From NCBI RefSeq assembly GCF_003334335.1, contig NZ_QOWQ01000011.1: 64,000 nt of DNA, one strand, 5' to 3'. This document shows, one piece after another, positions 10,436 through 40,281 of this stretch (the stretch's first letter is position 1; each line of letters begins with the position of its first letter). The stretch is from Escherichia coli (GTDB lineage: Bacteria; Pseudomonadota; Gammaproteobacteria; Enterobacterales; Enterobacteriaceae). The position numbers and the translations under genes were made by a program. Under the pieces are notes generated by a model. It made no database searches. It saw nothing but the letters and a program-made list of their open reading frames with translations, and was not told where the DNA came from.

Positions 10436-10585
10436 GACTCCTCCAGTGAGAAAATAGAGCAAAAAGATAAGTATAGATGCTGGAGGAGGGGCGATTTTAA
10501 ATGAGAGGAATCTGGTGTGCCTCCCTTTCGGGTGAAAGGGAGGAAGGGATATTAAGCAGGTTGCTGACAACGTGCGGGCTTTTTT

Positions 10586-10685
10586 GCCGGATGCGGCGTG
10601 AACGCCTTATCCGTCCTACAAGTTCATGCAATTTTAATAAGTTGCCAGATATCCTGTAGGCCTGATAAGCGTAGCGCATCAGGCA
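10586..10685. repeat. REP/BIME element (two REP units in opposite orientation)
   Basis: gccggatgcggcgtgaacgccttatccgtcctaca ... tgtaggcctgataagcgtagcgcatcaggca. Confidence 0.85.
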
Positions 10686-10695
10686 ATGTGTCTTA

Positions 10696-22510: not shown

Positions 22511-22570
22511 GTGATTATCCGTCACCCCGATACTGTCGGGGTGACGGCGGCTGATGACAAATGCAAAATA

Positions 22571-22670
22571 GCCTGATGCGCTACGCTTATCAGGCCTACG
22601 CAGTACCTGCAATATATTGAATCTGCAGGACTTTGTAGGCCGGATAAGGCGTTAACGCCGCATCAGGCAT
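22571..22670. repeat. REP/BIME element
   Basis: gcctgatgcgctacgcttatcaggcctac ... tgtaggccggataaggcgttaacgccgcatcaggcat. Confidence 0.85.
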
Positions 22671-22750
22671 TAACAAAGCGCATTTGTCAGCAATCTGAGT
22701 AACGTCGAATCGATTTTCTTAATCCCACATCAATTCACTTCCATTAATTC

Positions 22751-31522: not shown

Positions 31523-32488
31523 ATGGGCAAAGCAGTCATTGCAATTCATGGTGGCGCAGGTGCAATTAGCCGCGCGCAGATGAGTCTGCAACAGGAATTA
31601 CGCTACATCGAGGCGTTGTCTGCCATTGTTGAAACCGGGCAGAAAATGCTGGAAGCGGGCGAAAGTGCGCTGGATGTGGTGACGGAAGCGGTGCGTCTGC
31701 TGGAAGAGTGTCCACTGTTTAACGCCGGAATTGGCGCTGTCTTTACGCGTGATGAAACCCATGAACTGGACGCCTGTGTGATGGATGGTAACACCCTGAA
31801 AGCCGGTGCGGTGGCGGGCGTTAGTCATCTGCGTAATCCGGTTCTTGCCGCCCGGCTGGTGATGGAGCAAAGCCCGCATGTGATGATGATTGGCGAAGGG
31901 GCAGAAAATTTTGCGTTTGCTCGTGGCATGGAGCGCGTCTCGCCGGAGATTTTCTCCACGCCTTTGCGTTATGAACAACTACTGGCAGCGCGCAAGGAAG
32001 GGGCAACCGTCCTCGACCATAGCGGTGCGCCACTGGATGAAAAACAGAAAATGGGCACCGTGGGGGCCGTGGCGTTGGATTTAGACGGCAATTTGGCGGC
32101 AGCCACGTCCACAGGCGGAATGACCAATAAATTACCCGGACGAGTTGGCGATAGTCCCTTAGTGGGTGCCGGATGCTACGCCAATAACGCCAGTGTGGCG
32201 GTTTCTTGTACCGGCACGGGCGAAGTCTTCATCCGCGCGCTGGCGGCATATGACATCGCCGCGTTAATGGATTACGGCGGATTAAGTCTCGCGGAAGCCT
32301 GCGAGCGGGTAGTAATGGAAAAACTCCCTGCGCTTGGCGGTAGCGGTGGCTTAATCGCTATCGACCATGAAGGGAATGTCGCGCTACCGTTTAACACCGA
32401 AGGAATGTATCGCGCCTGGGGCTACGCAGGCGATACGCCAACCACCGGTATCTACCGTGAAAAAGGGGACACCGTTGCCACACAGTGA
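31523..32488 (+). CDS. iaaA: Isoaspartyl dipeptidase / L-asparaginase (Ntn hydrolase)
   Basis: 321 aa; autoproteolytic site region GTVGAVALD. Confidence 0.94.
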
Positions 32489-34346
32489 TGAACTTGATGC
32501 CGGTAATGTGCTGGCGGTTGAAAATCTGAATATTGCCTTTATGCAGGACCAGCAGAAAATAGCTGCGGTCCGCAATCTCTCTTTTAGTCTGCAACGCGGT
32601 GAGACGCTGGCAATTGTTGGCGAATCCGGCTCCGGTAAGTCAGTGACTGCGTTGGCATTGATGCGCCTGTTGGAACAGGCGGGCGGTTTAGTACAGTGCG
32701 ATAAAATGCTGTTGCAGCGGCGCAGTCGCGAAGTGATTGAACTTAGCGAGCAGAACGCTGCACAAATGCGCCATGTTCGCGGTGCGGATATGGCGATGAT
32801 ATTTCAGGAGCCGATGACATCGCTGAACCCGGTATTTACTGTGGGTGAACAGATTGCCGAATCAATTCGTCTGCATCAGAACGCCAGTCGTGAAGAAGCG
32901 ATGGTCGAGGCGAAGCGGATGCTGGATCAGGTACGCATTCCTGAGGCACAAACCATTCTTTCACGTTATCCGCATCAACTCTCTGGCGGGATGCGCCAGC
33001 GAGTGATGATTGCGATGGCGCTGTCATGCCGCCCGGCGGTGCTGATTGCCGATGAGCCAACCACCGCGCTGGATGTCACTATTCAGGCGCAGATCCTGCA
33101 ATTAATCAAAGTATTGCAAAAAGAGATGTCGATGGGCGTTATCTTTATCACTCACGATATGGGCGTGGTGGCAGAGATTGCCGATCGGGTACTGGTGATG
33201 TATCAGGGCGAGGCGGTGGAAACGGGTACCGTCGAACAGATTTTTCATGCACCGCAACATCCTTACACCCGTGCGCTGTTAGCTGCTGTTCCGCAACTTG
33301 GTGCGATGAAAGGGTTAGATTATCCCCGACGTTTCCCGTTGATATCGCTTGAACATCCAGCGAAACAGGCCCCCCCCATCGAGCAGAAAACGGTGGTGGA
33401 TGGCGAACCTGTTTTACGAGTGCGTAATCTTGTCACCCGTTTCCCTTTGCGCAGCGGTTTGTTGAATCGCGTAACGCGGGAAGTGCATGCCGTTGAGAAA
33501 GTCAGTTTTGATCTCTGGCCTGGCGAAACGCTATCGCTGGTGGGCGAGTCTGGCAGCGGTAAATCCACTACCGGGCGGGCGTTGCTGCGCCTGGTCGAAT
33601 CGCAGGGCGGCGAAATTATCTTTAACGGTCAGCGAATCGATACCTTGTCACCCGGCAAACTTCAGGCATTACGCCGGGATATTCAGTTTATTTTTCAGGA
33701 CCCTTACGCTTCGCTGGACCCACGTCAGACCATCGGTGATTCGATTATCGAACCGCTGCGTGTACACGGTTTATTGCCAGGTAAAGACGCGGCTGCACGC
33801 GTTGCGTGGTTGCTGGAGCGCGTGGGCCTGTTACCTGAACATGCCTGGCGTTACCCGCATGAGTTTTCCGGCGGTCAGCGCCAGCGCATCTGCATTGCTC
33901 GCGCGTTGGCATTGAATCCAAAAGTGATCATTGCCGACGAAGCCGTTTCGGCGCTGGATGTTTCTATTCGCGGGCAGATTATCAACTTGTTGCTCGATCT
34001 CCAGCGTGATTTCGGCATTGCGTATCTGTTTATCTCCCACGATATGGCGGTGGTAGAGCGGATTAGTCATCGTGTGGCGGTGATGTATCTCGGGCAAATT
34101 GTTGAAATTGGTCCACGGCGCGCGGTCTTCGAAAACCCGCAGCATCCTTATACGCGTAAATTACTGGCGGCAGTTCCGGTCGCTGAACCGTCCCGACAAC
34201 GACCGCAGCGTGTACTGCTGTCGGACGATCTTCCCAGCAATATTCATCTGCGTGGCGAAGAGGTGGCAGCCGTCTCGTTGCAATGCGTCGGGCCGGGGCA
34301 TTACGTCGCACAACCACAATCAGAATACGCATTCATGCGTAGATAA
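32475..34346 (+). CDS. gsiA: Glutathione/peptide ABC importer ATP-binding protein (dual ABC domain)
   Basis: ORF-track start rejected; TTG at 32475 gives [12 protein letters not shown]... (623 aa); two Walker A motifs GESGSGKS; overlaps iaaA end by 14 nt. Confidence 0.88.
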
Positions 34347-34365: not shown

Positions 34366-35903
34366 ATGGCAAGAGCTGTACACCGTAGTGGGTTAGTGGC
34401 GCTGGGCATTGCGACAGCGTTGATGGCATCTTGTGCATTCGCTGCCAAAGATGTGGTGGTGGCGGTAGGATCGAATTTCACCACGCTCGATCCGTATGAC
34501 GCAAATGACACGTTATCTCAGCCGTAGCGAAATCGTTTTACCAGGGGCTGTTCGGTCTGGATAAAGAGATGAAACTGAAAAACGTGCTGGCGGAGAGTTA
34601 TACCGTTTCCGATGACGGCATTACTTACACCGTGAAATTGCGGGAAGGCATTAAATTCCAGGATGGCACCGATTTCAACGCCGCGGCGGTGAAAGCGAAT
34701 CTGGACCGGGCCAGCGATCCGGCGAATCATCTTAAACGCTATAACCTGTATAAGAATATTGCTAAAACGGAAGCGATCGATCCGACAACGGTAAAGATTA
34801 CCCTCAAACAGCCGTTCTCAGCGTTTATTAATATTCTTGCCCATCCGGCGACCGCGATGATTTCACCGGCAGCGCTGGAAAAATATGGCAAGGAGATTGG
34901 TTTTTATCCGGTGGGAACCGGACCGTATGAACTGGATACCTGGAATCAGACCGATTTTGTGAAGGTGAAAAAATTCGCGGGTTACTGGCAGCCAGGATTG
35001 CCCAAACTGGACAGCATAACCTGGCGTCCGGTGGCGGATAACAACACCCGCGCGGCAATGCTGCAAACCGGTGAAGCGCAGTTTGCTTTCCCCATTCCTT
35101 ACGAGCAGGCCACACTGCTGGAGAAAAACAAAAATATCGAGTTGATGGCCAGTCCGTCAATTATGCAGCGTTATATCAGTATGAACGTGACGCAAAAGCC
35201 GTTCGATAACCCGAAGGTCCGTGAGGCGCTGAATTACGCCATTAACCGTCCGGCGCTGGTGAAAGTTGCCTTTGCGGGCTATGCAACGCCAGCTACTGGT
35301 GTGGTACCGCCAAGTATCGCCTACGCGCAAAGTTATAAACCGTGGCCTTACGATCCAGTGAAAGCGCGCGAATTACTGAAAGAGGCGGGATATCCCAACG
35401 GTTTCAGTACCACGCTGTGGTCGTCACATAACCACAGCACCGCGCAGAAAGTGCTGCAATTTACCCAGCAGCAGTTAGCGCAGGTCGGGATTAAAGCCCA
35501 GGTGACTGCGATGGATGCCGGACAGCGGGCGGCAGAAGTTGAAGGTAAAGGGCAAAAAGAGAGCGGCGTGCGGATGTTCTACACTGGCTGGTCGGCTTCA
35601 ACCGGCGAAGCGGACTGGGCACTATCGCCGCTGTTTGCCTCGCAGAACTGGCCACCGACGCTGTTTAATACCGCGTTTTACAGCAATAAACAGGTGGATG
35701 ACTTCCTGGCTCAGGCACTGAAAACTAATGATCCGGCGGAAAAGACCCGCTTATATAAGGCGGCGCAGGATATCATCTGGCAAGAATCGCCGTGGATCCC
35801 GCTGGTGGTAGAAAAACTGGTGTCGGCACACAGTAAAAACCTGACCGGTTTTTGGATCATGCCAGACACCGGCTTCAGCTTTGAAGACGCGGATTTGCAA
35901 TAA
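34366..35903 (+). pseudogene. gsiB: Periplasmic substrate-binding protein GsiB (family-5 SBP), frameshifted
   Basis: ATG 34366 with RBS gives signal peptide + 53 aa then TAG at 34525; the rest ([20 protein letters not shown]... to 35903) continues in the +2 frame; frame 3 has no start between the stop at 34506-34508 and ATG 34569. Confidence 0.8.
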
Positions 35904-35920: not shown

Positions 35921-36841
35921 ATGCTTAATTACGTTATCAAACGATTACTGGGGTTGATTCCGACGCTGTTTATCGTCTCGGTGCTGGTGTTTTTATTTGT
36001 CCATATGCTGCCCGGCGATCCGGCGCGATTGATTGCCGGGCCCGAAGCTGATGCGCAGGTTATAGAACTGGTGCGTCAGCAGCTGGGGTTGGATCAGCCG
36101 CTGTATCACCAGTTCTGGCACTATATCAGCAATGCTGTGCAGGGGGATTTTGGCCTGTCGATGGTGTCGCGTCGTCCGGTTGCCGATGAGATTGCCAGCC
36201 GCTTTATGCCAACGCTGTGGCTGACCATAACCAGTATGGTCTGGGCGGTTATATTTGGTATGGCGGCGGGAATTATCGCCGCCGTCTGGCGTAACCGTTG
36301 GCCGGATCGATTGAGTATGACCATTGCGGTGTCGGGGATCTCGTTTCCGGCATTTGCTCTGGGGATGCTTTTAATTCAGGTATTCTCCGTTGAACTGGGC
36401 TGGCTGCCTACCGTGGGAGCAGACAGTTGGCAGCACTACATTTTACCCTCCCTGACGCTCGGCGCGGCAGTGGCCGCCGTGATGGCGCGCTTTACCCGCG
36501 CGTCGTTTGTCGATGTTTTAAGCGAAGATTATATGCGTACCGCGAGGGCGAAAGGGGTGAGCGAAACCTGGGTTGTCCTCAAACACGGGCTACGTAACGC
36601 GATGATCCCGGTAGTGACCATGATGGGCTTACAGTTTGGCTTTTTGCTCGGTGGTTCCATCGTTGTGGAGAAAGTTTTCAACTGGCCGGGACTTGGACGC
36701 TTACTCGTTGACTCCGTAGAAATGCGTGATTACCCGGTGATTCAGGCGGAAATTCTGCTTTTCTCGCTGGAATTTATTCTTATCAACTTAGTGGTGGATG
36801 TGCTTTACGCCGCCATTAACCCGGCTATCAGGTACAAGTAA
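35921..36841 (+). CDS. gsiC: Glutathione/peptide ABC importer permease
   Basis: 306 aa; DppB-like permease. Confidence 0.95.
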
Positions 36842-36843
36842 GG

Positions 36844-37755
36844 ATGCGACTATTTAACTGGCGACGTCAGGCGGTGTTAAACGCCATGCCACTGGTCAAA
36901 CCTGACCAGGTACGTACACCGTGGCATGAATTCTGGCGACGATTTCGCCGTCAGCATATGGCGATGACCGCCGCATTATTCGTTATTTTATTGATTGTGG
37001 TGGCCATTTTTGCACGCTGGATCGCTCCCTATGACGCCGAAAATTATTTTGATTATGACAATCTGAATAACGGACCTTCTTTGCAGCACTGGTTTGGCGT
37101 CGATTCACTGGGGCGTGACATTTTCAGCCGTGTCCTGGTTGGTGCGCAAATCTCGCTGGCGGCGGGCGTGTTTGCCGTGTTTATCGGTGCGGCGATCGGG
37201 ACGTTGCTGGGCTTGCTCGCTGGATATTATGAAGGCTGGTGGGATCGGCTGATCATGCGCATTTGCGATGTGCTGTTTGCCTTCCCGGGTATTTTACTGG
37301 CGATCGCTGTTGTTGCGGTGTTGGGAAGCGGCATTGCTAACGTGATTATTGCAGTCGCCATTTTTTCCATCCCCGCGTTTGCCCGCCTGGTGCGCGGCAA
37401 CACGCTGGTGTTGAAACAGCAAACCTTTATTGAGTCAGCACGCAGTATTGGTGCCAGCGATATGACCGTTTTGTTGCGTCATATCCTGCCTGGGACCGTC
37501 TCTTCTATCGTGGTGTTTTTCACCATGCGCATTGGTACCTCGATTATCTCTGCCGCCAGCCTCTCATTTCTCGGCCTCGGTGCGCAGCCGCCGACACCAG
37601 AGTGGGGAGCAATGCTCAATGAGGCTCGAGCGGATATGGTTATCGCGCCGCATGTCGCTGTTTTTCCGGCCCTGGCTATTTTTCTGACCGTACTGGCGTT
37701 CAATTTGTTGGGCGATGGTTTACGCGATGCGCTGGATCCGAAAATTAAAGGATAG
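36844..37755 (+). CDS. gsiD: Glutathione/peptide ABC importer permease
   Basis: 303 aa; DppC-like permease; 2-nt gap after gsiC. Confidence 0.95.
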
Positions 37756-37932
37756 TTACGTTTGAATATTGCTTGAAAGGGTAATCACCTCACAGGAAAT
37801 TATTGCCCTAAGCAAGTGTTGTAACTTTCTGCTGATTTTGTAGAATCGGGTAATTTGGTTAAAAAGCCGCAGCAAGGGACAATTTTTGCAGCGGCACAGC
37901 GTTCAGATAGTTATTTTGTTAAATGTATTAAC

Positions 37933-40281
37933 ATGCTGAGTTTATACGAAAAGATAAAGATAAGGCTGATAATTTTATTTTTATTGGCAGCACTGTCATT
38001 TATTGGTCTTTTTTTCATCATTAACTATCAACTGGTATCGGAGCGCGCGGTAAAACGTGCCGATAGCCGCTTTGAACTTATTCAGAAAAACGTTGGCTAT
38101 TTCTTTAAAGATATTGAACGTTCGGCCCTGACATTAAAGGACTCACTGTATTTATTAAAAAATACAGAGGAGATTCAACGCGCCGTGATTCTTAAAATGG
38201 AAATGATGCCATTTTTAGACTCGGTGGGACTGGTACTTGATGATAATAAATATTATCTTTTTTCGCGGAGGGCGAATGATAAAATCGTTGTTTATCATCA
38301 GGAACAAGTAAATGGACCGCTTGTCGACGAGTCAGGGCGGGTTATTTTTGCCGATTTTAACCCATCGAAACGACCGTGGTCGGTGGCTTCAGATGACTCT
38401 AACAACAGCTGGAATCCGGCATACAATTGCTTTGATCGTCCGGGTAAAAAATGTATCTCTTTTACGCTACACATCAACGGCAAAGATCACGATTTGTTAG
38501 CGGTGGATAAAATTCATGTCGATTTAAACTGGCGATATCTGAACGAGTATCTTGATCAAATCAGCGCTAATGATGAAGTTCTATTTTTGAAACAAGGCCA
38601 TGAGATCATTGCCAAGAATCAACTCGCTCGTGAAAAACTGATTATTTATAATAGCGAAGGTAATTATAATATTATTGATTCTGTCGATACTGAATATATC
38701 GAAAAAACATCAGCGGTGCCAAACAACGCATTATTCGAAATCTATTTTTATTATCCTGGCGGTAATTTATTGAACGCATCAGATAAACTTTTTTATCTGC
38801 CGTTTGCGTTCATTATTATCGTATTGCTGGTGGTTTATTTAATGACCACTCGTGTGTTCCGTCGGCAATTTTCTGAAATGACAGAGCTGGTTAATACGCT
38901 GGCGTTTTTGCCTGACTCAACGGATCAAATCGAGGCTCTGAAAATTCGTGAAGGCGATGCGAAAGAGATTATCAGCATCAAAAATTCGATCGCGGAAATG
39001 AAAGATGCCGAAATTGAACGGTCAAATAAATTGCTCTCACTGATCTCTTACGATCAGGAAAGTGGTTTTATTAAAAATATGGCGATTATTGAGTCTAACA
39101 ATAATCAGTATCTGGCTGTGGGGATCATCAAACTGTGTGGTCTGGAAGCCGTGGAAGCGGTGTTTGGTGTTGATGAGCGCAATAAAATCGTCAGGAAATT
39201 GTGTCAGCGAATTGCCGAGAAATATGCGCAATGCTGCGATATCGTGACATTCAATGCCGATCTCTATTTACTTCTGTGTCGGGAAAATGTACAGACATTT
39301 ACCCGTAAAATAGCGATGGTAAACGATTTTGACAGCAGCTTTGGCTACCGCAATCTGCGCATCCATAAGTCTGCCATTTGTGAACCTTTGCAGGGGGAAA
39401 ACGCCTGGAGTTACGCAGAAAAACTGAAACTGGCGATTTCCAGTATCCGTGACCATATGTTCTCAGAGTTTATTTTCTGTGATGACGCGAAACTCAACGA
39501 AATAGAAGAGAATATCTGGATTGCGCGTAATATTCGCCATGCAATGGAAATTGGCGAACTATTCCTCGTCTATCAACCGATCGTTGATATTAACACCCGC
39601 GCCATTCTGGGCGCGGAGGCGTTGTGCCGTTGGGTGTCTGCGGAGCGGGGGATCATTTCACCGCTGAAGTTCATTACCATTGCTGAAGATATCGGGTTTA
39701 TCAATGAGCTGGGTTATCAGATTATTAAAACGGCAATGGGTGAATTCAGACATTTTAGTCAGCGTGCGTCGCTGAAGGATGATTTCTTACTGCATATTAA
39801 TGTTTCGCCCTGGCAGTTAAACGAACCACACTTTCATGAGCGTTTTACCACCATCATGAAAGAAAATGGCCTGAAGGCGAACAGCCTCTGTGTTGAGATC
39901 ACTGAAACCGTGATCGAGCGAATTAATGAACATTTTTATCTCAATATTGAACAACTGCGTAAACAAGGGGTACGGATATCGATTGATGACTTTGGCACCG
40001 GTTTGTCAAACCTGAAACGTTTTTATGAAATTAATCCAGACAGCATAAAGGTGGACTCGCAATTCACCGGCGATATTTTCGGTACTGCGGGAAAAATTGT
40101 GCGCATTATTTTCGACCTGGCACGCTATAACCGGATCCCGGTGATTGCGGAAGGCGTAGAGAGCGAAGACGTTGCGCGCGAATTAATCAAATTAGGATGT
40201 GTTCAGGCTCAGGGGTATCTGTACCAGAAACCCATGCCATTCTCCGCCTGGGATAAAAGTGGAAAATTAGTAAAAGAGTAG
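37933..40281 (+). CDS. pdeI: c-di-GMP phosphodiesterase (membrane-anchored, EAL domain)
   Basis: Start trimmed to [16 protein letters not shown] (782 aa); EAL motif (GAEALCRWV); visibly AT-rich coding sequence. Confidence 0.9.

Follow-up and report, generated by a model that had tools for sequence, protein, structure and literature searches.

The DNA analyzed here, hereafter the window, is a stretch of 64,000 nucleotides that is colinear with positions 835046-899046 of Escherichia coli K-12 MG1655, from dinG to rlmC. It contains five adjacent genes on the plus strand in the order iaaA-gsiA-gsiB-gsiC-gsiD. The first of these, iaaA (31523..32488), is intact, lies directly upstream of gsiA and overlaps its start; its product shows an S147P difference from MG1655, a residue common to E. 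coli C. The ATPase subunit gene gsiA (32475..34346) is intact and has no difference from MG1655 b0829. The two permease subunit genes, gsiC (35921..36841) and gsiD (36844..37755), are also intact, with one synonymous change in gsiC at position 35944 (codon 8). In the glutathione ABC importer GsiABCD, gsiB provides the periplasmic binding protein, and it is the only MG1655 gene in the window that is interrupted. A longest-ORF listing of the window gave gsiA as 32367-34346 (659 aa from an upstream ATG, against 623 aa annotated) and pdeI as 37855-40281 (808 aa from a TTG, against 782 aa annotated); we rejected both extended starts as longest-ORF reporting artefacts, not sequence differences from MG1655.

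The whole gsiB interval (34366..35903, plus strand) is 1538 nt long, one G short of the 1539 nt (512 aa) of the intact gene, MG1655 b0830 (869411-870949). RefSeq matches across this interval are all annotated gsiB. Frame 1 runs from the ATG at 34366 for 53 codons and ends at a TAG at 34525-34527. The 53-aa product of this 5′ fragment (34366..34527, plus strand), as defined by the ORF list and the translation, consists of a Sec-type signal peptide (residues 1-26), 26 mature residues (27-52) and a single frameshift-derived Pro. The signal peptide presumably ends at the boundary between CAFA and AK, a position suggested by the sequence and by what is known of GsiB; the chain in the crystal structure 1UQW starts just ahead of AKDVV. 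The remainder of the gene lies in the -1 frame. Frame 3 is open from directly after a TGA at 34506-34508 to a TAA at 35901-35903, and the 3′ part of gsiB within it (34521..35903, plus strand) encodes residues 53-512 in 460 codons, including the SBP_bac_5 domain, in a sequence that matches 1UQW/YliB identically. This part has no start of its own before the ATG at 34569, which is the first ATG, GTG or TTG in the frame. The longest ORF with a start codon (34569..35903, plus strand) therefore runs from Met69 to the end of the gene and encodes 444 aa, a product for which PF00496 is recorded. The two frames share a stretch of 19 nt (34509-34527), which reads CACGTTATCTCAGCCGTAG.

A base-by-base walk along all 64,000 bases detected eight substitutions and one indel relative to MG1655. 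At the protein level, the substitutions change four amino acids and introduce no stop codons. The sole indel shortens the GG of CAGGCC to a single G (MG1655 869566-869567; window 34521..34522, plus strand), and the same walk against E. coli C placed the deletion at the same site. It is the one difference between the window and b0830 across the whole of gsiB, changing CAGGCCGTAGCG in MG1655 to CAGCCGTAGCG in the window; the deletion allele reads CAGCCGTAG and the intact allele reads CAGGCCGTAG. As a result, G34521 both completes the Gln52 codon (CAG) and opens the Ala53 codon (GCC), and a premature TAG follows two codons downstream. The split is a discrete feature of the sequence rather than a statistical pattern: since both halves are 100% identical to gsiB, chance resemblance is not at issue.

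These results bear out a first-pass annotation of the window, made from its letters and an ORF list. It had described a frame 1 product with a signal peptide that terminates at 34525-34527, and a frame 3 that continues from 34521 to 35903 with a stop at 34506-34508 and no start before 34569; the ORFs and translations agree with both descriptions. It had also proposed that one missing G near 34520-34523 splits a single ORF of about 512 aa, and that this could be checked by alignment to b0830. The alignment revealed exactly one missing G, at 34521/2, in a gene whose intact form encodes 512 aa. The sequence TLSQAVAKSF, which it had given for intact GsiB at this junction, is found there in both MG1655 and the crystallised protein 1UQW. 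An identical reference sequence would have argued against the proposal; instead, MG1655 has the G, and none of the complete genomes described below matches the site exactly.

To what extent is this allele present in public sequence data? An 80-nt query centred on the deletion site matched 5,422 of the 5,426 RefSeq complete E. coli genomes. The allele is rare, since none of these 5,422 genomes carries the deletion: no match to the 80-nt query reached 100%, and the best matches were all at 98.8%, corresponding to 80 matches and one gap. Megablast searches of RefSeq complete E. coli genomes with 80-nt, 1.5-kb and 24-kb queries also returned no exact match, and the best 24-kb matches (E. coli C, WG5, NCTC122 and others) retain the G. 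Exact-sequence look-ups of the two residual gsiB products, by contrast with the complete genomes, located the lesion in Logan assemblies. In SRR1815430, the 53-aa peptide was located on a contig of 42,024 bp that recurs in five samples. The SRR1815430 locus (L013) is 100.000% identical to window positions 24366-44527 (20,162 bases), deletion included. The peptide is also called on a 20,381-bp contig of SRR32903638, whose loci (L014 and L005) have the deletion and differ from the window solely at position 35944, where they keep the ancestral C. In all, the exact deletion allele was found in about six to seven read sets. A literature search for frameshifted or pseudogene forms of gsiB yielded only general work on pseudogenes and on frameshifting, and one for the accessions of the two runs gave no hits.

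The first-pass annotation had left two options for the missing base, a sequencing or assembly error and a genuine mutation. An error would mean that gsiB is truly intact in the strain and that one G went missing from the consensus. Indels of one base are the most frequent kind of consensus error, the allele is missing from every matching complete genome, and other public assemblies of this region do contain such errors (L004, L006, L009 and L011, in which gsiA is split too). Those error-prone assemblies, however, have three to four gaps per 7.3 kb, compared with a single gap over the 64 kb of the window, and this is its only indel relative to both MG1655 and E. coli C. The deletion also lies within a run of two bases, not a long homopolymer, and no base has been lost from the neighbouring longer runs (TTTT at 34536 and GGGG at 34544). 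The lesion is also reproduced in independent sequence data. Two or more unrelated read sets contain it, including one whose contig recurs in five samples; SRR1815430 and SRR32903638 probably come from different projects and years, given that their accession numbers are far apart. If the window had itself been assembled from SRR1815430, SRR32903638 would be the only fully independent witness, and it is this carrier that has a different base from the window at a SNP lying 1.4 kb from the deletion. Because separate read sets share the lesion, and the two haplotypes that carry it are distinguished by a nearby SNP, it points to an inherited mutation rather than an assembly error. We therefore consider an error very unlikely, and the second of the two options is favored by the recurrence of the lesion in independently assembled public read sets together with its standing as the sole indel in 64 kb against two references. 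The gsiB frameshift is in all likelihood a real, lineage-specific mutation, a reading based on agreement between assemblies.

The two haplotypes also bear on the age of the mutation. Since the change at 35944 is absent from SRR32903638, which has the deletion, the deletion predates this SNP. Given that gsiA, gsiC and gsiD are intact and that the single synonymous change among them postdates the deletion, the pseudogene is young.

We next consider the background in which the mutation arose. In addition to the deletion, 10 substitutions separate the window from E. coli C (CP020543), compared with eight from MG1655. E. coli C was entertained as a closer relative than MG1655 and was rejected on these base-by-base counts. 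The source looks like a natural lineage, about equidistant from K-12 and C in this region, and not a K-12 derivative; the lineage is of K-12/C type and presumably belongs to phylogroup A. Four positions are specific to the window in comparison with both MG1655 and C, namely 22856, 23842, 35944 and 50001. They correspond to a synonymous change in ybiU, A59T in YbiU, the synonymous change in gsiC codon 8 and A62S in YbjH, respectively. YbiU A59T was tried as a lineage marker by which relatives could be checked for an intact gsiB. It was discarded as a shared polymorphism, because the exact protein is also present in lineages that are 1-1.5% divergent (L017 and L018), and its 10-kb flank moreover ends about 500 bp short of the deletion; T59 in the window may reflect recombination or homoplasy. 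Two intergenic repeats of about 130-155 bp (10557-10687 and 22549-22703) are 81-87% identical to each other and to other intergenic sites in MG1655, and resemble REP/BIME elements. As computed from contig coordinates, a Logan contig of the lineage ends at about window position 22635, inside the second repeat.

The loss of gsiB might have been adaptive or deliberately introduced instead of a neutral accident. Public assemblies contain several distinct lesions within the opening 200 nt of the gene, and the lack of secondary decay in gsiA, gsiC and gsiD indicates that the event in the window is recent. Lesions within the first ~200 nt leave the same 444-aa ORF as the window allele, and they differ from it in nature, position and background. 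In L003 and L008, CAG (Gln60) is changed to TAG at the position equivalent to window ~34542, in a K-12-type background and in two runs with 2024-era accessions; speculatively, these C-to-T nonsense alleles might be engineered. In L006, L007, L009, L010 and L011, the GGGG at window 34544-34547 has become GGG or GGGGG, with L010 being of K-12 type, and in L012 (GCA_958328395.1) an IS1 insertion lies early in gsiB. Several of these lesions, however, lie in assemblies with many other indels and may be errors, and those in assemblies that also split gsiA probably are. Furthermore, no more than 95 blocks (80 recorded contigs) of a very extensive collection contain the 444-aa product, and some of these cases are plainly assembly errors. 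The exact allele, seen in a handful of read sets and in no complete genome, has a frequency that fits the mutational background. The specific proposal that recurrent early lesions across unrelated read sets represent parallel adaptive inactivation, so that loss of GsiB was selected, is in our view highly improbable; if it were true, shutting off the uptake of glutathione disulfide or gamma-glutamyl peptides could benefit the lineage in its niche. In a weaker version of this proposal, a signal-less 444-aa fragment would be made and have a cytoplasmic role. The broader alternative of an adaptive or deliberately introduced loss in the window itself strikes us as extremely improbable. We see no sign of selection for the loss of gsiB in the lesion frequencies across public assemblies.

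The weakest alternative, that a -1 ribosomal frameshift or transcriptional slippage restores GsiB or that the two pieces function separately, is scarcely credible: a -1 shift within the 19-nt overlap would yield a near-normal protein, and low-level non-programmed frameshift suppression is said to occur in E. coli, but an X XXY YYZ slippery heptamer is absent throughout 34366-34527, the overlap has no homopolymer of four or more bases, all 5,422 matching complete genomes have gsiB in a single frame and none has the two-frame split, the 53-aa piece holds only 27 mature residues, and the 444-aa piece has neither a signal peptide nor a strong Shine-Dalgarno sequence. Because the split is not conserved among the complete genomes, there appears to be no selected recoding signal, and programmed -1 frameshifting and slippage were rejected on the slippery-site and conservation evidence. 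Re-initiation at Met69 is possible in principle. The predicted Shine-Dalgarno duplex at this codon (34569) has an energy of -3.1 kcal/mol, compared with -6.6 kcal/mol for the native gsiB start and -7.8 kcal/mol for gsiC, and re-initiation would be expected to be poor because of this weak site. Missing both the signal peptide and the initial 42 mature residues, any product that starts at Met69 could probably neither reach the periplasm nor fold as a complete binding protein.

Having weighed these alternatives, we propose the following consequences of a real mutation in gsiB. In this reading, one G was lost from the GG at codon 52/53 in a natural E. coli lineage of K-12/C type. Ribosomes initiating at the normal ATG produce a 53-residue peptide and stop at the TAG at 34525-34527, leaving the remaining 460 codons stranded in the -1 frame with no start before Met69. 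Functional periplasmic GsiB would not be made, judging from the reading frames, and GsiA, GsiC and GsiD, whose genes are intact, would have no binding protein to work with. In addition, Rho-dependent polarity caused by the 1.4 kb of gsiB mRNA that is left untranslated may lower gsiCD expression. According to knock-out data, glutathione import by the Gsi system depends on GsiB (PMC6236770). In strains that lack gshA, deleting gsiB eliminates the response to GSSG and leaves that to GSH, which is taken up via Opp, so that it is mainly GSSG import that is lost; OppA is unable to replace GsiB at the Gsi permease, with no cross-talk from OppA (PMC11719327). On this basis, the predicted phenotype of the strain is a loss of Gsi-mediated uptake, with glutathione disulfide no longer imported and reduced glutathione still entering via Opp.

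The finding bears chiefly on how the locus is described. In annotation, gsiB should be labeled a frameshifted pseudogene instead of being entered as a pair of hypothetical proteins. Import by Gsi, comprising glutathione disulfide uptake and the use of glutathione as a sulfur source by this route, should be left out of metabolic models of the strain. More generally, independent public read sets can distinguish a true indel from an error without recourse to the original reads, and gsiB provides a clean example.

With regard to classification, the gsiB region shows homology to SBP_bac_5 (PF00496) and to GsiB, as expected for a family-5 (cluster C) substrate-binding protein, and it lies in an operon with cognate ATPase and permease genes. 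No single ORF, however, joins the signal peptide to a complete binding domain, and gsiB here is therefore a pseudogene within this family, not one of its functional members. It has the features of a frameshift pseudogene, an indel whose length is not a multiple of three and a premature stop, relative to MG1655, E. coli C and the 5,422 complete genomes alike. We conclude that the gene, itself well characterised, has here an ordinary null allele of a very common kind that arose recently and at the level of the strain. The closest known counterpart is GsiB of E. coli K-12 (YliB, b0830, UniProt P75797, PDB 1UQW), whose gene has the same nucleotides over all 1538 retained bases and whose locus shares the gene order and chromosomal neighbourhood of the window. 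In contrast to K-12 gsiB, the ORF in the window is split into 53 aa and 444 aa, from which no intact product is possible. The expected outcome is the same as for the Keio ΔgsiB::kan mutant (BW25113 background), namely a Gsi system without its binding protein. Whereas the Keio allele is an engineered replacement, the allele in the window is a spontaneous point frameshift that, unlike the Keio allele, leaves a long untranslated gsiB mRNA upstream of gsiCD, and the polar effects of the two alleles may differ accordingly.
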